From Caldivirga maquilingensis IC-167 (GTDB taxonomy: Archaea; Thermoproteota; Thermoprotei; Thermoproteales; Thermocladiaceae): 32,000 bases of DNA. Below are positions 1,192 through 31,553 of the stretch, piece after piece. Both the position numbers and the translations under genes were made by a program. The notes under the pieces were generated by a model. It saw only the letters and a list, made by a program, of their open reading frames with translations. It was not told the DNA's origin and did not search any database. Each line of letters begins with the position of its first letter. The stretch's first letter is position 1. The stretch lies in assembly GCF_000018305.1 (NCBI RefSeq), contig NC_009954.1, positions 2,010,001 to 2,042,000 of the forward strand. Reading direction: 5' to 3'.

Positions 1192-2781
1192 ATGTCTATG
1201 GGTCAAGAAGTATCCAGCAGTATGGATCCTGAGACTAGGGCAGCTAGAGTATCACTTAAGTACTTATTCACATGGCTCGGTGTATTCCTTGCAGGTGGTT
1301 TACTTGGCTTAACCATGAGGAGTCAGCAAGCTAACTTGGTTAACGTTGGTGACTCAGCCTTCTACACTATGATGACTGTGCATGGTCAATTCATGTTCCT
1401 AGGCCTAGGCACCTTCGGTGCCTTTGGCCTAACCTGGTATGTGTTAGCTAAGGCGCTTAGGAGGGATCTTCACTACAGGTTCATTAACGTTATTTACTGG
1501 CTCCTAGTACTGGGGTTTGCATTAATAGGCATTAGTGGGCTTTACGGGAACTTTGGGGCTGGTTGGTACTTCCTATACCCCCTACCACTCTACTCTGTGC
1601 AAGACCAGTGGACTAATTGGAGTGTTGCAGCCTTCTCACTTGGGGAATTATTACTTGGATTAGCATTAATATTCTACTGTATTGAGGTCATAGCAGTCCT
1701 AGTTCAATGGGGTGGAGGCGGTGTTAGGTCATGGTCCTCCATTAAGAAGGGATTCATGGCTATGGCCAGGGGTATTGGACTTGATGGATTGGGTGTAGTT
1801 AAGGCTAATCCACATAGGCTTGACGCCTCAGTATTCCCATTAATAGCCAACGCCATTGATATGCTGGTTGCCACACCACCATTGGCAGCGCTACTACTGG
1901 TCATGTTCATTGGCTCCACCGTTAACCCTAACTTCGGCATTAACGTGGGGCTTGCCGATAACATGTTTTGGTTCTTCGGCCACCCAATAGTATACCAATT
2001 ACTATTCCCGGCTGTTGCAGCACTGTATCTACTCTTCGAGCTAGGTAGCAATAGGGATTGGCTTGGATACACTGTTACCGGGGCTATTTGGGTACTGGCT
2101 ACAGTCACGAATCTACTCGTATGGGTTCACCACCTATACCTATACCCATTTGAACCACTCCCAGTGAATTTAATGAGCCAGCTGTCAACAATGGGCATAT
2201 CCATAGTGTCTGCTGTTTCAGTTTTCGCGTTATTAGCAATGATGTGGAGGAGTGGTATTAAGATGACTCCCCCATACATGTTCAGTCTAATCGCCATGTT
2301 CGCCTGGCTTGAGGCTGGTTACTCCGGTGTGGCTCAGGCTATTGTGGCATGGAACCTATACCTACATAATACCCTATGGGTCGTGGCTCACTTCCACACA
2401 ATGGCGCTTTTAAACATAGCCATGGTGGCCATAGCCCTCATATACTACCTAGTGCCTAAGGCATACCCATGGGTTAACCTGTACGATAAGTGGAGTAAGG
2501 TTCACTTCTGGATGACCTTGGTGGGTGGGTTTGGGTTCGTTAACACGTGGTTCGCTGAGGGTGTGTTAGGTGTACCTAGGAGGTACGCCTACCACTACAT
2601 GCTTACCGTGTACGGGATACCGGTGACAAACCTTGACTTAATCGGGGTAATCTTCGCAATAATACTTGGCATTGCCCAGGGGATCTTTGCCGTTAAACTA
2701 TTCAATGAACTTGTGATTAAGCGCATTAGAATAATGGCTGAGCAGGAGGCTGAACGCATTGTGGCATCGGGTGGTCAATGA
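1192..2781 (+). CDS. Haem-copper oxidase subunit I, B-family-like
   Basis: Polytopic membrane protein. It carries WFFGHPIVY (H-P-I-V-Y at nt 1981-1995), VHHLY and VAHFH ligand motifs. The Glu of the A1-type GHPEVY motif is replaced by Ile, as I recall for ba3/SoxB-type enzymes. Confidence 0.93.
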   Translation: MSMGQEVSSSMDPETRAARVSLKYLFTWLGVFLAGGLLGLTMRSQQANLVNVGDSAFYTMMTVHGQFMFLGLGTFGAFGLTWYVLAKALRRDLHYRFINVIYWLLVLGFALIGISGLYGNFGAGWYFLYPLPLYSVQDQWTNWSVAAFSLGELLLGLALIFYCIEVIAVLVQWGGGGVRSWSSIKKGFMAMARGIGLDGLGVVKANPHRLDASVFPLIANAIDMLVATPPLAALLLVMFIGSTVNPNFGINVGLADNMFWFFGHPIVYQLLFPAVAALYLLFELGSNRDWLGYTVTGAIWVLATVTNLLVWVHHLYLYPFEPLPVNLMSQLSTMGISIVSAVSVFALLAMMWRSGIKMTPPYMFSLIAMFAWLEAGYSGVAQAIVAWNLYLHNTLWVVAHFHTMALLNIAMVAIALIYYLVPKAYPWVNLYDKWSKVHFWMTLVGGFGFVNTWFAEGVLGVPRRYAYHYMLTVYGIPVTNLDLIGVIFAIILGIAQGIFAVKLFNELVIKRIRIMAEQEAERIVASGGQ

Positions 2782-3560
2782 TGGGGGATAATGTTAACCA
2801 AGGTAGGAGGAATTTCCTAAAAGTCCTAGTAACCCTAGCCGGTGTGGCGATGCTGGCAAGCGCCCTACCACCGGTGGTGGAGCAGATAATACCACCTGAA
2901 ACCGGCCTCACATCATTCCCAAGACTACTGCTGGTGGATGAGAACGGTAACCCTGTTAAGGCCTCCCAAATACCCGTGAATACTCAAGTCATCCTATCAT
3001 TTCCCTACCCCCTTAGTAATGAGCCTAATATGCTGCTTAATCTCGGCGACTCCTCTGGTAGGCCTGTGGAGGTTCCTCCCACTACTGTTGTTGTTCCTCA
3101 GACTGGTGCATCATATGAATTCCCAGGTGGAGTAGGTCCATATAAGTCAATTGTTGCATATAGTGGAATATGTCAGCACTTGGGTTGCCAAATGCCATTA
3201 ATGAGCTTCTACCCAAATGCATCAAACTGTCAACCAGCAGCAACATCAGCCGGTAACCTTAAGGGTGTCATCCACTGCCTATGCCACGGATCCACATACG
3301 ACCCATATAAGGGTGGTGCTGTGGTTACTGGGCCAACAGTAAGGCCTTTACCGGCTGTGGTTCTTGAATGGGATTCAAGCACTGATGAATTATACGCAGT
3401 GAAAATGATAGGACCAGTAATATACGGGCACCCAGGCTTCAACACACCCACAAACAACACAATAAACAACCCAATAGGGGACCTACAGGGTGGTAGTGCG
3501 GCTGGTTCAGTATCAACCATTGTTTCTAATCTAGGTAAGTTAACCCAGTGTTCAGGGTGA
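2778..3560 (+). CDS. Rieske [2Fe-2S] protein with twin-arginine signal
   Basis: The N-terminus has GRRNFLKVLVTLAGVAMLASA, a Tat motif plus hydrophobic region. Rieske boxes CQHLGC and CLCHGS span nt 3171-3293. The ATGA start/stop overlaps subunit I. Confidence 0.9.
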   Translation: MMGDNVNQGRRNFLKVLVTLAGVAMLASALPPVVEQIIPPETGLTSFPRLLLVDENGNPVKASQIPVNTQVILSFPYPLSNEPNMLLNLGDSSGRPVEVPPTTVVVPQTGASYEFPGGVGPYKSIVAYSGICQHLGCQMPLMSFYPNASNCQPAATSAGNLKGVIHCLCHGSTYDPYKGGAVVTGPTVRPLPAVVLEWDSSTDELYAVKMIGPVIYGHPGFNTPTNNTINNPIGDLQGGSAAGSVSTIVSNLGKLTQCSG

Positions 3561-5110
3561 TGGGTATGGGTCTTCGTGATGCAGTGAATAATGCTAGTAA
3601 TAGGATTAGAAGCATTATAAATAGCGTTAGAGGCTTTAGTATTGAGAAGTGGCTTGAGGAGAGAACTAGGTTAAGTGAGTTACCGTTGGTTGGTGTTCCT
3701 GATTACATGCTTAGTTTAAGGTATTGGACCGGTGGCCTAGTGGCCTCAGCCTTCTTCTGGCAGGTGGTAACCGGTTTAATACTACTACTCTACTACCAGC
3801 CCAGTAATCCCTATGACTCAACCATGAGCCTAATAAACAACACGATATGGGGTAAGGTACTGCTGGCCTCTCACCTATACGGAGCCTATGTAATGATATT
3901 CCTAATGCTTGTTCACATGTTTAGGAACTACTTCGAGGGTTCTTATAAGAGGCCTAGGGAGCTTCAATGGTTCATTGGAGTAATAATGGGTGCAGTAACC
4001 TTCGGCATAGCCTTCTTCGGCTACTCACTCATCGGTGACACATTATCTGTCGATGGCGCTGATGTGGCTAAGGGTTTAATCCAAGGATTCCCAGGCGGCA
4101 GCACAATATTAACAATACTCTTCGGGACCGGTAGTGAGATTGAGCAGTATACCAGGGTCTTGGCCTGGCATATAATACTGGCAGCACTCCTAATGCTACT
4201 GCTCCTCCTTCACCTGGGTTTGGCTGAGCAGCATGGTATAATGCCAGACCCCAGGAGACATGGCTACAGGGCGCCGGCGCTTTACGATAAGTCTAAGGTA
4301 CCGCCCTGGTGGCCTAGGAACTTCCTCTACACTGTGGCTATATTATTCTGGACATGGGGCTTCATAATACTGATACCATCAATACTACTAATGCTACCAC
4401 CCAACTCAATACCAATACTCTTCTCACCACTACCTGGCCCACCACCAACAAGCCCACAGGCAGCCTCAATACCACCATACCCACTTTGGTTCTTCCTCTA
4501 CGTCTACAAGATCGTTGACTTCGGAATACCGGCATTCTCAGGTACTCAGGGTGCGGCCGTGGCTGTTACGGTAGGTGGCATTATACCATTACTCTTCCTA
4601 CTCCTACTACCGTTCCTAGACCGTAGTGATAAGCTTCATCCACTTGATAGAATAGGGTTCACCATAGTCATGGTTTGGCTGCTCGTCGTATGGTTAAGCC
4701 TATACTCTGTTCTAGGCGCATTAACACCAGGTGTTATTATACCGCCATCCATTGTGGCTTTAATAACACTACCACCCACAGTGGTGATAATAGGTGGTTT
4801 ACTTGCTGTTAGGAGGATCTGGGTAAACCAGTTGAAGAGGTATAATGGCACGGTCACCGCGGGTACGGTCACTGATCTTAAGTCTAAGGCTAAGGAGATT
4901 GCTTTAAAGAGGGCTTACGCGACACTAGCCTTAATTGTTCTCACAGCCGTTGAGATAGCGATAATGGCTGTATTCTGGCGTATTGCACCATACCTAACCC
5001 CCAAGGATTCCCAGGTGGCTGGGGCATTGGTTGGCGTGGGCTTAATAGTGTTTGGTGAGGTAATTGCCCTCTACCGCTACATAGCTTACCCACCTAAGGT
5101 GACTGAATGA
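3548..5110 (+). CDS. Cytochrome b (bc-complex type, long form with extra C-terminal TM helices)
   Basis: WTGGLVASAFFWQVVTGLILLLYY is present. Two H-x13-H haem-ligand pairs occur: SHLYGAYVMIFLMLVH and WHIILAALLMLLLLLH. A Qo-loop motif variant PPWW lies at nt 4301-4312. The start may be the ATG at 3560 (TGATG overlap with the Rieske stop) rather than the GTG at 3548. Confidence 0.9.
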   Translation: MFRVMGMGLRDAVNNASNRIRSIINSVRGFSIEKWLEERTRLSELPLVGVPDYMLSLRYWTGGLVASAFFWQVVTGLILLLYYQPSNPYDSTMSLINNTIWGKVLLASHLYGAYVMIFLMLVHMFRNYFEGSYKRPRELQWFIGVIMGAVTFGIAFFGYSLIGDTLSVDGADVAKGLIQGFPGGSTILTILFGTGSEIEQYTRVLAWHIILAALLMLLLLLHLGLAEQHGIMPDPRRHGYRAPALYDKSKVPPWWPRNFLYTVAILFWTWGFIILIPSILLMLPPNSIPILFSPLPGPPPTSPQAASIPPYPLWFFLYVYKIVDFGIPAFSGTQGAAVAVTVGGIIPLLFLLLLPFLDRSDKLHPLDRIGFTIVMVWLLVVWLSLYSVLGALTPGVIIPPSIVALITLPPTVVIIGGLLAVRRIWVNQLKRYNGTVTAGTVTDLKSKAKEIALKRAYATLALIVLTAVEIAIMAVFWRIAPYLTPKDSQVAGALVGVGLIVFGEVIALYRYIAYPPKVTE

Positions 5111-7062
5111 ACCTATGGCTAGCCTACTTCACTTACGGTGGGGCAGCTGGAATGGTGTTAACCATAGCCGTAACACTACGCTTCTACAAGAACTTCATAT
5201 TAAAGAATGAATTAAACCTGCATAGGTTACTATGGATCCTATACATATTAGTCTCAATGAGCCTAATGTATGGTTTAGCCCTCTACTACCTGTTGAATAA
5301 ATCCATGTACTCATTGTTCACCGCCATTTTAGTCTCCAACGTGACCATGGTCTCTTGGCTTATTCTAATCACCACGGGCAGTGGTGGTAAACGCAACGTG
5401 TATTCGCCATTTGTTAATGCATTGGTTACTGGGTTGATTCTAATTGCAGAGTACCTAATGAGCCTAACATACGCCTACCTAACTGGGGTTACTAGGATGT
5501 TACCTGTGAATGCGTTGAATTCACCGTGGTTCACAATACCAATGACCATGGAGGCATTGTTAAGCTACACACTAATTAAGCCCAGGAACATAATTGGTAG
5601 GTTAGCCCCAGTCCTAATACTAAACATGGTGTTTAACCCATTATCATTCAACTTCAGTTATTGGCCAGCATTAAGCATATATGCCTCAGCGGTATTAATG
5701 ACGATAGCCGTAGTGGTTATCCTTGATTACATGTATAGGAAAAGCATACTAACCCACTGGGATCTCGTCTTCTCATTGGGTTCAGTAACCATGATGGGCA
5801 TCATGATGCTTATTCAATTCCTTGGACTACTAAACAACACCTACTGGCGGTACTACGGGTTATCACTATTAGTCGATATGGCATTCTACCTATACATGTA
5901 CGTGCACTCTGAGGTTAATCCAAGGCCACTAGCCTGGATAACCAAACCCTATTCATTAACAGCACTACTGCTACTAGTATTCATATCCGAGGCTCTCATG
6001 GGTGGTGTCGTATCTATTCAAGCTGGTTGGTTGAACCCTATTGGTGTTGCTAGACTCCTTAGTATTAATAATTCACTGGGCGCATTAATAATAAACCTAA
6101 TAACCCTAACCTCAGCATTAACACTATCACCAGGCTTTCTAATAATGATGGGTGCGGAGATGGGTTGGCTGGTATTAAGTAGGTTTAGGGAGCTTAAGCA
6201 CCTTGAGAATAAGGTTAGGTTCATGCTCATGTTCCTGGCATACTGGTTATACACAGTCTACGTACCCAGCTTCCTACCAAGCTGGTTAATCAAGTACCCG
6301 TACCTATACTGGAGCATGGGTCTGGGTACAGCTGGCCCACTGTCTCCAATGCTACTTACCGCAATAATAGGCACATACGTTATTAATGCAGTGTTATCGT
6401 TATTATTCGGCTCCAGGCAATTATGCTCCGTAACCTGTTCAGCATCCTACATGTGGCAGGGCACATTCTACAATAAGTTGAAGACTAGCCCCATGAACCC
6501 ATTAAGGGGTAGTAGACGTGGGTTAATTCACAGTGTTAGGATAATTAATGCAGTGTTAATATACGGTGCCTTGGGTGTTTTAGCATACTTGTCATTAATG
6601 GATCAATTAGGCCACTTGAGGTTTTACATTAATGGGGAAGACCCATTAATCTTCCTTTACCTACTCCTCTTCGGCTTCCTATGGTACATTTCCTTCGCAC
6701 TGGCCCCAATACTGGGTACGTATAATTGCGTAACCTACGGCTGGTGCCACTGGGGCTTATTCAACCAGGCTGTGGGTAGGTTGGGGTTGTTTAAACTAGT
6801 GGTTAAGGATCCTGGATTATGCATCGAATGCAAGACTAAGGACTGCGCCAAGGCATGCCCAGTGGGTAACTCCAATATGCCTGGAAGCTTCATTAAGAAG
6901 GGTTACTATAAGTCATCAACATGCATTGGTGTTGGCGACTGCGTTGAGGCATGCCCATACAACAACATAATTTTCTACGATGCAAGAGCATACTTTAAGA
7001 ATAAACTTACCCTAAGGCCCCTAAGGGTATTACTCAAGAAGCCATCGACTGATTACCAGTAA
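5107..7062 (+). CDS. Uncharacterised polytopic membrane protein with a C-terminal NapH/CcoG-like Cys module and a di-cluster ferredoxin domain
   Basis: An AGGTGA SD lies at 5097-5102, and the ATGA overlaps the cytochrome b stop. By eye there are roughly 14-16 hydrophobic helices. The C-terminus has CSVTCS and CVTYGWCHWG, then CIECKTKDCAKACP and CIGVGDCVEACP (nt 6424-6957). Confidence 0.8.
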   Translation: MNLWLAYFTYGGAAGMVLTIAVTLRFYKNFILKNELNLHRLLWILYILVSMSLMYGLALYYLLNKSMYSLFTAILVSNVTMVSWLILITTGSGGKRNVYSPFVNALVTGLILIAEYLMSLTYAYLTGVTRMLPVNALNSPWFTIPMTMEALLSYTLIKPRNIIGRLAPVLILNMVFNPLSFNFSYWPALSIYASAVLMTIAVVVILDYMYRKSILTHWDLVFSLGSVTMMGIMMLIQFLGLLNNTYWRYYGLSLLVDMAFYLYMYVHSEVNPRPLAWITKPYSLTALLLLVFISEALMGGVVSIQAGWLNPIGVARLLSINNSLGALIINLITLTSALTLSPGFLIMMGAEMGWLVLSRFRELKHLENKVRFMLMFLAYWLYTVYVPSFLPSWLIKYPYLYWSMGLGTAGPLSPMLLTAIIGTYVINAVLSLLFGSRQLCSVTCSASYMWQGTFYNKLKTSPMNPLRGSRRGLIHSVRIINAVLIYGALGVLAYLSLMDQLGHLRFYINGEDPLIFLYLLLFGFLWYISFALAPILGTYNCVTYGWCHWGLFNQAVGRLGLFKLVVKDPGLCIECKTKDCAKACPVGNSNMPGSFIKKGYYKSSTCIGVGDCVEACPYNNIIFYDARAYFKNKLTLRPLRVLLKKPSTDYQ

Positions 7063-9934: not shown

Positions 9935-9942
9935 ATTAAAAT
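9935..9942 (+). promoter_or_regulatory. TATA-box-like element for the GH116 gene
   Basis: ATTAAAAT begins 29 nt before the ATG at 9964. Confidence 0.45.
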
Positions 9943-9963
9943 AACTGCACTGTGCTCTAATCC

Positions 9964-11679
9964 ATGAGGGTTTACGCATCCAAATTCTCCTCAGGTATAC
10001 CGCTTGGTGGCTTAGGCACGGGTTCGATTGAGATTTGGCCTGATGGATCCTTTAAGGAATGGTTAATATTCAATAATAGGAAGTGGAGTAACTACGGTGA
10101 ACCGGAGTTCTACGTTAATGACTCAGACCTAGCCTTCATGATTAGGATAGCCCCAGAGGGTTCTGAACCATTGGTTAGGCTACTTAAAACAGGCTTCTGG
10201 GTTGAGACTGACCAGGACTTAACCTACAGGGGATGTGGGCCAAGCGCCGTGATTCACCCATATCACATGCCTTGGTTTAGGCCAGTTAGGGAAATTGAAT
10301 TCACGGGTAAGCCACCCATGGCTATACTCAAGTTCATAGACCCCTCCCTGGAGGAGCATGGGGTTGGCGTGGAATTGGAGGCCTTTGGATCATTAATACC
10401 GGGTAACGTTAATGACTCAGCGATACCAGCTGCCTTCCTTAAATTCAACCTAGTGAATAAGGGGAGGACCACAGTGGAGTTATCATTAATGGGCGTTATG
10501 AGGAATCCGCATAGGATTAATGAGGGCGCCGGTGTTGTTAATAAGTTAATCGAGGGGGAGGGTTATAGTGGGGTTAGCTTCAATGGGTTAAGTATCCCGA
10601 AGACCCACGGTATGTTTAATGGCGAATTAGCGTTAGTTATAATGGGTGGATTCGACTCAGCTGCGACGCTTAGGTTGAATCAGAGGAATAGGGGTGAGTT
10701 CATTAATGCGTTAAGGCGGTTAATGGTTGATTTCAGGGGTGATGGATTATTAAGCGGTGTTACTAATGATGAGGCGTATGGTGTTGACTTATACTCAGCC
10801 CTAACTAAGAGTATTAGACTTAAGCCCGGTGAATCAGCATCAATAGTATTCATTATTGCATGGTATTACCCTAACCACATTGATAATGATGGTGAATTAA
10901 TCGGCCACTACTACGAGAACCTATTCAGGAACATTAAGGGGGTATTGGATTACTCGGTTAAGAACTTTAATAGGCTTTACAGTGATGTTAAGGATTTCGT
11001 GAACTCACTCTACGATACTAATTACGATGAGTGGATAATTGACTTAGCATCATCTCAATTAACCACGTTACCTAAATCAACCTGGCTAACTAAAGACGGG
11101 TACTTCGCTATTTGGGAGGGTGGACCAGGATGCTGCGGCTTAACAACACTTGACGTTGCATTATGGGGTATTGTTGGTGTTGCCCTACTCTACCCCGATC
11201 TAGCAGTTAAGGTTAGTCGCCAATTCTCAGGGTTCATTCTTAAGCCTGGAATGTCACCATTCTATGAATTGTTTGCATTAGCCTTCCCTGAGAACATGAG
11301 ATTATATAGGGAGGCTTTAGCCAAGGACCCAACTATACAGCATGATGTTGAGAAATTCAGAAGCACAGTAAGGGCAATAGTTGAGAAGACTGGGCTTGAT
11401 CCAACGGGCAGGGTGCCTCATGCCTTCAGGGCCAGTGAAAGCAGTGTTGATGGGTACGATAGGAATGATTTAATGCCTGAATTCATACTACTAAGCCTAC
11501 TCAACTACTACTGGACTGGGGATTCATTATTCCTTAGGGATATTTGGGGAAGCGTAAAGACTGTTATTGAAGCTATGTTAAGGCAGCATAATGAAGCCAA
11601 GTTAAACCTACCATACCATACTCCACCATCTGGTTATGAAGGCTCCTCACAGGTGGCTAATGAGCTTGGGAGGGGTTAG
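9964..11679 (+). CDS. GH116 (GBA2-type) beta-glycosidase, N-terminal 571-aa part ending at an in-frame TAG
   Basis: The N-terminus has GIPLGGLGTGSIEIWPDG, a GBA2 N-domain signature. DGYFAIWEGGPGCCGLTTLDV contains the putative nucleophile Glu at nt 11116-11118. TAG lies at 11677-11679. Confidence 0.82.
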   Translation: MRVYASKFSSGIPLGGLGTGSIEIWPDGSFKEWLIFNNRKWSNYGEPEFYVNDSDLAFMIRIAPEGSEPLVRLLKTGFWVETDQDLTYRGCGPSAVIHPYHMPWFRPVREIEFTGKPPMAILKFIDPSLEEHGVGVELEAFGSLIPGNVNDSAIPAAFLKFNLVNKGRTTVELSLMGVMRNPHRINEGAGVVNKLIEGEGYSGVSFNGLSIPKTHGMFNGELALVIMGGFDSAATLRLNQRNRGEFINALRRLMVDFRGDGLLSGVTNDEAYGVDLYSALTKSIRLKPGESASIVFIIAWYYPNHIDNDGELIGHYYENLFRNIKGVLDYSVKNFNRLYSDVKDFVNSLYDTNYDEWIIDLASSQLTTLPKSTWLTKDGYFAIWEGGPGCCGLTTLDVALWGIVGVALLYPDLAVKVSRQFSGFILKPGMSPFYELFALAFPENMRLYREALAKDPTIQHDVEKFRSTVRAIVEKTGLDPTGRVPHAFRASESSVDGYDRNDLMPEFILLSLLNYYWTGDSLFLRDIWGSVKTVIEAMLRQHNEAKLNLPYHTPPSGYEGSSQVANELGRG

Positions 11680-12717
11680 ATGAGGGATGTAATGAGGCTA
11701 CTTTTCAGTGGACCAATGTACTTCCACACAACCGTTAATACGTTTGATACAATGAGCCTACTGGGTATCGCAACATTCACCTCAGACCTATGGATAGCTG
11801 CATTAAAGGCTACTTTAAGCATAGCCAATGAGGCTGGGGATGAGGCCTACGCCAATAAGTTAAGTGAAGTCTTTAACATCGCCTTAAGTAACTTCATTAA
11901 ATACCTGTGGAATGGCGAGTACTTCGACCTATGGTTCGACCCTGTAAGTGGCCTTAGGGATAATGCAGTAATGACCGCTGGCTTAACCGGAGAATGGTAC
12001 CTCAGGGTTCTCTTAGGCTTAGATTACGCCGTGGATAAGGATAAGGTAGTCTCAATGTTAAGGGCAATATACAGGAATAACTTTAAGAAGGGTGAAGGCT
12101 TAATTAACGCCTCATACCCAGGTAAGCCTAGGCCATCACTGGTCGGTGACTTAAAGTACTTCAACAGTACTGGAATACCGTATAGTGTTGGTGGACAAAT
12201 GGATACACCTTGGACTGGTATAGAGATACCTGTTGCAATACACATGATATGGGAGGGATTGGTTAACGAGGGCTTAGAAATACTGCGTAGTGTTCATGAT
12301 AGGTATATTGATTACGGATTATACTGGAACCACGTTGAGTGTGATGGCCATTACTTTAGGCCATTGGTATCACTTGATATACCCAATGCCCTAGCTGGAT
12401 TCAGGTACATTGGGAGGGATAAGTCAATAACAGTAAACCCAAGAATTAAGACACCCATTAGGGGACCTGTGCTTGCACCTGGGTCAGTTATGACACTGGA
12501 CTACGGTGAACATGAGGTTAAGTTAACCGGTAGGATTGGTGAAGTGGAGGTTAGTAAAATAACGCTTAGTGGTTTCATGGGTAAGTCCATTAGGGTCTTC
12601 TACAATGGCGTTGAGGTTAAGGCAGTAGTGAACATTGAGGACGGCCACGTCTCAGTAATTTTAGATAACCCTGTGAAGCTTAGTAGGGGAGGCACATTAA
12701 CTATAATTGGGTATTAG
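11680..12717 (+). CDS. GH116 beta-glycosidase, C-terminal 345-aa part, same frame as the preceding ORF
   Basis: The ATG directly follows the TAG in the same frame. VNTFDTMSLLGIATFTSDLWIAALKA resembles the TYD...LWLAAL acid/base region, with Asp at nt 11746-11748. GGAGG at 11669-11673 lies 6 nt upstream of the ATG. Confidence 0.78.
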   Translation: MRDVMRLLFSGPMYFHTTVNTFDTMSLLGIATFTSDLWIAALKATLSIANEAGDEAYANKLSEVFNIALSNFIKYLWNGEYFDLWFDPVSGLRDNAVMTAGLTGEWYLRVLLGLDYAVDKDKVVSMLRAIYRNNFKKGEGLINASYPGKPRPSLVGDLKYFNSTGIPYSVGGQMDTPWTGIEIPVAIHMIWEGLVNEGLEILRSVHDRYIDYGLYWNHVECDGHYFRPLVSLDIPNALAGFRYIGRDKSITVNPRIKTPIRGPVLAPGSVMTLDYGEHEVKLTGRIGEVEVSKITLSGFMGKSIRVFYNGVEVKAVVNIEDGHVSVILDNPVKLSRGGTLTIIGY

Positions 12718-13207: not shown

Positions 13208-13295
13208 ACTTAACCCGATTTGAATTATGTTTGAGTTAATTAGGGGCTTAACCATTGTTGACTAGGAGACGTTGCAAGGTAAGTTTAAGGAAAGA

Positions 13296-13303
13296 CTTAA
13301 ATA
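13296..13303 (+). promoter_or_regulatory. TATA-box-like element for S26e
   Basis: CTTAAATA begins 31 nt before the GTG at 13327. Confidence 0.5.
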
Positions 13304-13326
13304 CTGGGATCTTAATGGTGATATTC

Positions 13327-13773
13327 GTGCCTAAGAAGAGGAAAAACAGGGGGAGACATAAGGGAGATAAGGGTAAGGAGTCGATAGTTTACTGCGATAA
13401 TTGCGGTAAAATGATACCTAGGTCAAAGGCAGTTAGGGTAACTGTACCCTACTCACCAATACCGACTGACTTAGCTAAGGAGCTTGAGAAACAGGGGGCG
13501 ATAGTGCCAAGGTACTACATTACCAAGACCTACTGCGTCAACTGCGCAATCTACCTTGGGATAATTAAGGTTAGGTCTGAGGATGAGAGGAAGAGTAAGA
13601 AGCCAATACTAAGGGGGCAACAGAGGCCGCAAAGGCAATTACCAGTGGCAGCCTCAGCGGCTGCTGCACCAGCGGCATCAACAGCATCACCAACTCAACC
13701 AACTGAAGGTAATGCGCAGGCTGAGTCAAATAATAAGCCAAGTGAGAATACTAGTCAAAGCACCTCGAAGTAA
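13327..13773 (+). CDS. rps26e: Ribosomal protein S26e with a long low-complexity C-terminal tail
   Basis: The GTG at 13327 gives (M)PKKRKNRGRHKGDKGKESIVYCDNCGKMIPRSKAVRV...YCVNCAIYLGIIKVRS, the typical S26e zinc-ribbon layout. The track start at 13255 adds 24 non-conserved residues and lies upstream of the TATA box. Confidence 0.88.
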   Translation: MPKKRKNRGRHKGDKGKESIVYCDNCGKMIPRSKAVRVTVPYSPIPTDLAKELEKQGAIVPRYYITKTYCVNCAIYLGIIKVRSEDERKSKKPILRGQQRPQRQLPVAASAAAAPAASTASPTQPTEGNAQAESNNKPSENTSQSTSK

Positions 13774-13857: not shown

Positions 13858-13948
13858 GGGCCCGTAGTCTAGCTTGGTTAGGATGCCCGCCTGACGATGC
13901 ATGGCATCAGATCGCGGGAGATCCCGGGTTCAAGTCCCGGCGGGCCCA
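13858..13948 (+). tRNA. tRNA-Val(GAC): tRNA-Val (anticodon GAC) with a 16-nt intron at the canonical 37/38 position
   Basis: The acceptor pairs GGGCCCG with CGGGCCC, and the discriminator is A. The anticodon stem pairs CCCGC with GCGGG, in a loop CUGACG[intron 13897-13912]C. The T arm is CCGGG-UUCAAGU-CCCGG. No CCA is encoded. Confidence 0.9.
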
Positions 13949-13968
13949 CTATTTGGTTTAGAATAATG

Positions 13969-20736: not shown

Positions 20737-20826
20737 GCCCCGGTAGCTCAGCCTGGTCGGAGCGCCCGCCTCGTAAGCAAACACTGAGTAAGCGGGAGGT
20801 CCCGGGTTCGAATCCCGGCCGGGGCT
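20737..20826 (+). tRNA. tRNA-Thr(CGU): tRNA-Thr (anticodon CGU) with a 15-nt intron at the canonical 37/38 position
   Basis: The acceptor pairs GCCCCGG with CCGGGGC, and the discriminator is U. The D arm is GCUC...GAGC. The anticodon stem pairs CCCGC with GCGGG, in a loop CUCGUA[intron 20776-20790]A. The T arm is CCGGG-UUCGAAU-CCCGG. The intron boundary is ambiguous by 1-2 nt because GUAAGC is repeated. Confidence 0.88.
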
Positions 20827-31358: not shown

Positions 31359-31450
31359 GGGCCCGTAGTCTAGCTTGGTTAGGATGCCCGCCTCACGGGT
31401 GCTGCATCTGGGATCGCGGGAGATCCCGGGTTCGAGTCCCGGCGGGCCCA
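31359..31450 (+). tRNA. tRNA-Val(CAC): tRNA-Val (anticodon CAC) with a 17-nt intron at the canonical 37/38 position
   Basis: The exons are identical to the tRNA at 13858 except for anticodon base 34 (C vs G) and one T-loop base (G vs A). The loop is CUCACG[intron 31398-31414]C. Confidence 0.9.
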
Positions 31451-31553
31451 CTCATCATAGTGTTCTCAATAATGTTTTTAAGTTACTTAACCTTACCTTA
31501 CTGTGCCTCACGGTGTTTTATCAAGGTTACTTAACCCATTCATTAGGGGTGAG

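Follow-up and report, generated by a model that had tools for sequence, protein, structure and literature searches.

The window analyzed here is a stretch of 32,000 nucleotides (nt) from the genome of Caldivirga maquilingensis IC-167 (NC_009954.1, positions 2,010,001 to 2,042,000), and the gene in question is one for a family 116 glycoside hydrolase (GH116) that is interrupted by a single in-frame stop codon. The split is real, derived, and specific to this lineage; apart from it the GH116 gene is an ordinary one, and public annotation already lists it as two proteins. The reading that we tentatively favor is a derived gene fission that would make a translationally coupled two-chain enzyme; its chances fall just short of even, and it is narrowly preferred over a very young pseudogene. 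The two are nearly equal in likelihood, and sequence alone does not decide between them. The fuller version, in which an active GH116 glycosidase is formed from two separately translated chains, the catalytic Glu coming from one and the catalytic Asp from the other, after a recent fission that was stabilized by the abutting start codon, is a shade less assured.

A TAG codon alone parts an open reading frame (ORF) of 571 amino acids (window positions 9964-11679, piece 1) from one of 345 amino acids (11680-12717, piece 2); the frame is shared, and an ATG follows directly after the TAG. Piece 2 itself ends in TAG, then TGA. RefSeq lists both pieces as separate C. maquilingensis proteins that match exactly, each named GH116 family glycosyl hydrolase. 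The ORF coordinates, motifs, codon positions, and TAG/ATG junction given in a preliminary description of this locus all agree with the sequence and the ORF list.

Among the causes which that description had considered, an error of sequencing or assembly in the reference genome now has a negligible probability. Three separate sequencing runs (SRR253096, SRR9435970, and SRR9435971) have Logan assemblies that contain the identical 2754-nt gene and are 100% identical to the window along their entire 4-7 kb. Since three independent read-set assemblies carry the TAG, such an error is excluded. All three runs are of one strain, in which the mutation could have been gained early in culture.

A database search with the joined protein returned single ORFs of 918 amino acids at 91% and 88% identity, then a long run of archaeal homologues of 894-933 amino acids. 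The closest share the neighborhood of the window gene: upstream lies a class-I Trp/Tyr tRNA synthetase, and downstream lie ribosomal protein S26e and a convergent CxxCxxCC gene. This marks them as true orthologues belonging to other Caldivirga lineages. In the codon alignment, the orthologues read GGG AGG GAT TGG AGG GAG AGG GAA TTA across the junction, and the window reads GGG AGG GGT TAG ATG, then a one-codon gap, then AGG GAT GTA. Because the orthologues carry TGG in single intact ORFs of 909-918 amino acids (four of the four aligned have it at the stop position, the sense codon that had been sought in relatives), the stop is, as judged from this alignment, derived from TGG in the C. maquilingensis lineage, which upholds a recent nonsense mutation as its origin. 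The in-frame loss of one codon is the sole indel among the five Caldivirga sequences over the whole gene (three gap columns for the window against each orthologue, none among the orthologues).

No nearby copy exists that could have been a template for the new junction sequence. When metagenome contigs were scanned for wild alleles with the degenerate junction pattern CTTGGGAGGGRTTRGAKG, there were at least 120 chance matches, none of those listed being similar to the gene, as the pattern is too short. The clusters of 10 further archaeal matches contained no C. maquilingensis member, which argues weakly against paralogues.

The family assignment can be made from domains, orthologues, and fold. 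PF12215, the GH116 N-terminal domain, covers residues 11-337 of piece 1 (E=2.3e-35; 123 bits, where the cutoff is 30.2). The catalytic domain PF04685 is divided, with profile positions 1-138 matched in piece 1 (E=1e-6, 28.7 bits) and positions 154-336 in piece 2 (E=1.1e-31, 110.8 bits), and is complete only with both pieces joined. Because the orthologues are single proteins of 918 amino acids, the 571 residues, the stop, and the 345 residues are to be read as one GH116 enzyme, by homology rather than by chance. The structure model is that of a single-chain intact orthologue, 91% identical to the window protein (pLDDT 93.4, pTM 0.92), and its top Foldseek matches are all GH116 (E=1e-48 to 1e-31, TMt 0.76-0.79). 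The nearest structure is the subfamily-4 enzyme ExoMA2, and the nearest sequences are homologues from Thermocladium, Bathyarchaeia, and Acidilobus; the protein is a genuine GH116 member and belongs to an archaeal clade. The GH116 identity and domain order proposed at the outset are thus borne out by PF12215, the divided PF04685, and the single-chain orthologues.

In an alignment of 40 homologues, Glu385 and the Asp of the NTFD motif (D596 of homologue P0001) are both invariant, as are G15, G16, G18, and G20 within GIPLGGLGTGSIEI. The profile alignment of these homologues places Glu385 (AIWEGG) on the nucleophiles E441 of TxGH116 (FGLLE) and E431 of ExoMA2 (FAAWEG), and the NTFD Asp on the acid/bases D593 and D557 of the same two enzymes, the roles of whose residues were taken from PMC10167657, PMC10509167, and Protein Data Bank (PDB) titles. 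It supersedes a single-sequence alignment of the nucleophile to the TxGH116 E441G mutant chain, which was shifted by four residues. The nucleophile is thus predicted to lie in piece 1 and the acid/base in piece 2, just as the preliminary description had placed them. Since mutants of TxGH116 D593 lose up to ~30,000-fold in kcat/Km (PMC10167657), neither piece alone should be active.

The stop falls 23 residues before the catalytic Asp, within an insertion of ~35 residues that is absent from both solved GH116 enzymes; the corresponding short loops in these two are GLLDGEMH-NTYD and GIPDNEGIP-DQTYD in the profile alignment. In the model, the insertion forms two short helices (563-568 and 572-582), part of a long excursion that leads from barrel helix 521-541 to barrel helix 605-625; the break comes where the two short helices meet. 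Conservation in the protein is lowest at residues 566-576 (0-0.17), where only 18 of 38 distant homologues have any residue, and the conserved RxL-SGPMY block starts shortly after the new ATG. The break site, then, is a surface insertion that is clade-specific and poorly conserved. The insertion (PPSGYEG...SGPMY, window positions 11560-11745, residues ~545-595) is a feature of the Caldivirga/Thermocladium/Bathyarchaeia/Acidilobus GH116 clade. Homologue P0022, which ends at PPSGYE, simply reaches the end of its contig.

A two-chain enzyme could have arisen as follows. A Trp codon (TGG) in the surface insertion became TAG and the next codon ATG, with one codon lost in frame; these changes are seen in the alignment. 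Both ORFs would lie on a single mRNA from a promoter upstream of 9964, and ribosomes would stop at the TAG and restart at the abutting ATG, aided by the pre-existing GGGAGGGG, as at other tight junctions of the genome. The 571-residue chain would bring the beta-sandwich, the first barrel helices, and the nucleophile Glu385, and the 345-residue chain would bring the acid/base Asp, the remaining barrel helices, and the C-terminal beta-sandwich. The two chains would then fold together as a single barrel whose active site is composite, probably giving a less efficient enzyme. This reading is supported by the single lesion, the permissive loop, the new abutting ATG, the GGAGG-type motif, the in-frame indel at the junction, and substitutions that appear to have been filtered by selection.

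The TAG that abuts the new ATG and the GGGAGGGG run ending 4 nt before that ATG constitute a set of coupled-translation signals by consensus resemblance only. GGAGG- or GGTGA-type motifs stand at like spacing before operon-internal ORFs of the window (starts 5107 and, on the minus strand, 16797 and 20622). A GGAGG Shine–Dalgarno-like motif had been put forward as support for reinitiation. It is present and ends 6 nt upstream of the ATG, but it was not made for reinitiation, since GGGAGG is identical in all intact orthologues, where it codes for Gly-Arg, and so is older than the split. What is new at the junction is the ATG and the adjacent 3-nt deletion, not GGAGG. Upstream of the gene is a putative archaeal TATA box (Table 1); comparable AT-rich boxes, without a GGAGG-like motif, are also found upstream of other first-in-operon ORFs in the window. 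A scan for sigma-70 promoters and terminators gave only background levels and is irrelevant to archaea.

Several observations weigh against a two-chain enzyme. A single catalytic barrel is severed between its two catalytic residues, and the predicted RNA accessibility of the new start is no greater than in the orthologous sequence. Intact orthologues number at least 9 full-length in Caldivirga and ~11 in Thermocladium (909-913 amino acids) in cluster listings; 79 of 80 GH116 loci of reference genomes are uninterrupted, in a scan of genome contigs that did not return C. maquilingensis itself; and the stop-split form was found in C. maquilingensis only, in no relative covered by the orthologue search, the cluster listings, or the 80 loci. 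Up to 8.6% of annotated coding sequences are disrupted in crenarchaeal genomes (cited in PMC8211752). Selection was assessed by counting, for each of four Caldivirga lineages, the codon changes found in it alone, expressed as nonsynonymous/synonymous (N/S). The window lineage has 27/48 over the whole gene, and its relatives have 7/49 (L001), 13/48 (L008), and 21/69 (L002), that is, 41/166 when pooled (odds ratio 2.3, p=0.007); relaxation is greatest in piece 2, at 13/14 against 14/34 in piece 1. In the neighboring tRNA synthetase gene, the ratio of the window lineage is not raised in this way (2/14, the other lineages having 3/20, 4/27, and 9/30). Because N/S is raised in the GH116 gene and not in this neighbor, constraint on the GH116 gene is, by this measure, relaxed specifically in C. 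maquilingensis. There are also five changes in 24 nt at the junction, with similar or denser clusters elsewhere in the gene and in intact lineages; the clustering of substitutions was accordingly dropped as an argument, being unexceptional gene-wide.

A very young pseudogene, to which we give a probability somewhat below one-half, would account for much of this. Selection would already have been weak when a change of TGG to TAG knocked out the gene, whether through a single complex mutation (ATTGGAGGGAG to GTTAGATG) or a simple transition in an already drifted loop; the ATG would be coincidental, the fragments would be inactive, and there would have been little time for decay. All orthologues being intact, the rise in N/S in this lineage and this gene only, and the placement of the catalytic residues on separate pieces all favor it, as do the commonness of gene decay in Crenarchaeota (PMC8211752) and the existence of other interrupted GH116 genes, at varied positions, one of which (L006, below) is clearly decaying. 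By rough estimate, a neutral phase of ~5% of the terminal branch would roughly explain ~15 excess nonsynonymous changes along with about one stop and an indel or two. However, the excess substitutions are conservative and fall outside conserved columns: lineage-unique amino-acid changes have a mean conservation of 0.21 against 0.39 at random positions (P=0.0007), none being above 0.55, and their mean BLOSUM62 score is 1.0, compared with 1.15 in intact lineages and the ~-0.4 expected for random nonsynonymous mutations. A mixture with 13-15 of the 26 changes neutral is rejected (P=0.005-0.03); the substitutions, then, do not look neutral. A loss that happened very recently would leave no trace in this pattern. 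Nor is there a second stop or frameshift in the 2.75-kb gene, so that either the stop is very recent or selection is still acting on the split gene. It also tells against a pseudogene that the sole indel is in frame and at the junction, that the stop lies in the protein's most permissive stretch, and that an in-frame start would arise exactly beside a stop with a chance of ~2-5% (rough estimate). Roughly estimated, an adjacent in-frame start together with an in-frame indel has a probability of ~1% under the pseudogene model. Weighed against this is the low prior probability that a fission inside a single domain is functional, and the two readings come out about equal.

Readthrough of the TAG, by programmed recoding or a suppressor tRNA, would yield some full-length enzyme of ~104 kDa, and we consider it improbable. 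Near-cognate readthrough at a low level is possible in principle at any stop codon. Recoding is documented for one crenarchaeal glycosidase, though as a -1 frameshift (PMC8211752). Here, though, the stop is not conserved (the four aligned orthologues have TGG and more distant ones are uninterrupted), and TAG is an ordinary stop that terminates 7 of the 29 window ORFs examined, this gene's own end included. The fold of 11640-11760 (-33.4 kcal/mol against -30.0 +/- 3.6 for shuffled sequence, z=-0.97) reveals no stimulatory RNA element, no CUA anticodon occurs among the three tRNA genes of the 32-kb window, and in Archaea UAG recoding has been documented for pyrrolysine alone, in lineages that use methylamines (PMC8211752). 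Readthrough, which had been listed as a possible explanation, thus finds no support from the orthologues, from TAG usage, or from RNA structure. In the literature searched, no paper connects C. maquilingensis with GH116, and neither transcriptome nor proteome data turned up.

Other interrupted GH116 genes were met in the course of the searches. In the Guaymas Thermoprotei metagenome-assembled genome (MAG) B45_G16, an orthologue of 52% identity (L006, the same as L013) has TGG changed to TGA at 2070-2072, 17-20 codons upstream of the Caldivirga stop, and a frameshift near residue 791 (~2771). It is 97% identical to the intact L009 (3001-5790), and the population variants P0105 and P0108 (97% identical) are intact; L006 looks like true gene decay. 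A distant GH116 gene from a microbial-mat metagenome (L210, 29% identical, in a 7-member cluster) has an in-frame TGA at 2028-2030, 11 residues after the acid/base Asp and aligned with a Gly of TxGH116 (SAYCG versus NSYK*), and a second ORF restarts two codons later, at ATG 2034; its TGA could reflect a pseudogene, a sequencing error, or an alternative genetic code. GH116 proteins are also reported as two adjacent fragments in a Bathyarchaeia MAG (P0153 and P0155, on a single contig of 30,341 nt) and in Acidilobus (P0139 and P0148, on a single contig of 11,630 nt), with break positions unlike that of Caldivirga; GH116 calls that are fragmented are no rarity in metagenomes. The idea that recurrent stops in the same loop mark a permissive site was rejected, since L006 is frameshifted and the other MAG genes break elsewhere.

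Table 1. Features of the split GH116 gene, in window coordinates
Feature	Position	Strand	Remarks
Putative archaeal TATA box, AT-rich TTAAAATA	9936..9943	+	21-28 nt 5' of the first ATG; would serve a leaderless or short-leader mRNA
Piece 1, 571 amino acids, ATG start, WP_048062818.1	9964..11676	+	N-terminal beta-sandwich and first part of the (alpha/alpha)6 catalytic barrel
GIPLGGLGTGSIEI, residues 11-24	9994..10035	+	PF12215 match begins here, at residue 11
GAG, Glu385 in AIWEGG, predicted catalytic nucleophile	11116..11118	+	By homology
GGGAGGGG, Shine–Dalgarno-like purine run	11668..11675	+	Ends 4 nt before the ATG; encodes Gly-Arg-Gly in piece 1
GGAGG within GGGAGGGG	11669-11673	+	6 nt from its end to the ATG
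In-frame TAG, from TGG (Trp572 in orthologues)	11677..11679	+	Codon alignment with four intact Caldivirga orthologues
New ATG abutting the TAG, AGG (Arg) in orthologues	11680..11682	+	Codon alignment; loss of one codon (GAG, Glu) immediately 3'
Piece 2, 345 amino acids, WP_048062819.1	11680..12717	+	Acid/base loop, remaining barrel helices, C-terminal beta-sandwich
GAT, Asp23 of piece 2 (Asp595 in fused numbering), NTFD, predicted catalytic acid/base	11746..11748	+	By homology
C-terminal beta-sandwich domain	12400..12714	+	Approximately orthologue residues 814-917; all-strand secondary structure in the model

Elsewhere in the window, a respiratory cluster (1192-7062) encodes cytochrome oxidase subunit I, a Rieske protein, cytochrome b, and a protein of 651 amino acids with a C-terminal 4Fe-4S dicluster domain. 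Stops and starts overlap by 4-13 nt in this cluster, and tight translational coupling is usual in this genome. Downstream of the GH116 gene, the ribosomal protein S26e ORF (13255-13773, 172 amino acids) matches the Pfam S26e domain over residues 25-127 and carries a long low-complexity C-terminal tail rich in Ala, Ser, Thr, and Gln. The three tRNA genes (13858-13949, 20737-20826, and 31359-31451) are long, at 90-93 nt, and apparently contain introns; their apparent anticodons are GAC and CGU, read directly from two of the genes, and CAC, assigned to the third by ARAGORN. ARAGORN and Rfam each find two of the three, with only one in common, and ARAGORN gives the first a 4-base 'gacg' anticodon.

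Should the two chains prove to assemble, a hyperthermophile would provide a natural case of fission inside one catalytic (alpha/alpha)6 barrel, the active site being composite. It would represent gene fission caught in the act inside a single catalytic domain, with the intact form of the ancestor still present in sister lineages for direct comparison. Such a case could help to explain the fixation of gene fissions and serve the engineering of thermostable glycosidases in split form. If the gene is a pseudogene, it is a case of ordinary gene decay, and inventories of the carbohydrate-active enzymes of this organism should not count the two RefSeq GH116 proteins as separate enzymes. The interest of the locus is modest unless experiments show assembly of the two chains.

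Among characterized enzymes, TxGH116 of Thermoanaerobacterium xylanolyticum (PDB 5BVU) and human GBA2, both of subfamily 1, have the same two-domain fold of a beta-sandwich and an (alpha/alpha)6 barrel. The match to TxGH116 has a TM-score of 0.78 by target, a TMq of 0.66, and a profile E of 7e-100, at an identity of only 18-19%; TxGH116 is single-chain and lacks both the ~35-residue insertion and the extra C-terminal beta-sandwich of the Caldivirga clade. The best solved match is ExoMA2, an exo-beta-D-arabinofuranosidase of subfamily 4 from Microbacterium arabinogalactanolyticum (PDB 8IC6; profile E=5e-137, TMq 0.73), which shares the FAxWEG nucleophile motif and the NTYD/NTFD acid/base motif and carries an extra small beta-sandwich at its C terminus (PMC10509167). 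It differs in being bacterial and single-chain, with 19% identity and a short GEMH-NTYD loop without the insertion, and its specificity is not transferable. The crenarchaeal GH116 enzymes SSO1353 and SSO3039 of Saccharolobus solfataricus belong to other archaeal subfamilies (PMC10509167) and have uninterrupted genes; the Sulfolobus/Saccharolobus homologue P0028 (803 amino acids) is 33-37% identical over a full-length alignment.

The precedent cited in the preliminary description was the alpha-L-fucosidase gene fucA1 of S. solfataricus, which is annotated as two ORFs and in which a -1 frameshift at a slippery heptamer gives one active full-length chain (PMC8211752). It serves as a precedent only loosely, being a crenarchaeal glycosidase gene that is expressed in spite of its interruption; the mechanism is a different one. 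In the Caldivirga gene, the ORFs on either side of the stop are in the same frame and there is no recoding signal, so that the plausible route leads to two chains rather than one.

Two-gene glycosidases and natural split genes offer a further comparison. In the split genes of Nanoarchaeum equitans and the heterodimeric LacLM beta-galactosidases (GH2) from lactobacilli, one enzyme is made from two polypeptides whose genes are adjacent or separate; adjacent or overlapping stop/start junctions permit coupled translation. The LacLM and Nanoarchaeum splits are conserved across species and experimentally proven, whereas the Caldivirga split occurs in a single species or strain, and its two-chain product is a prediction from sequence.

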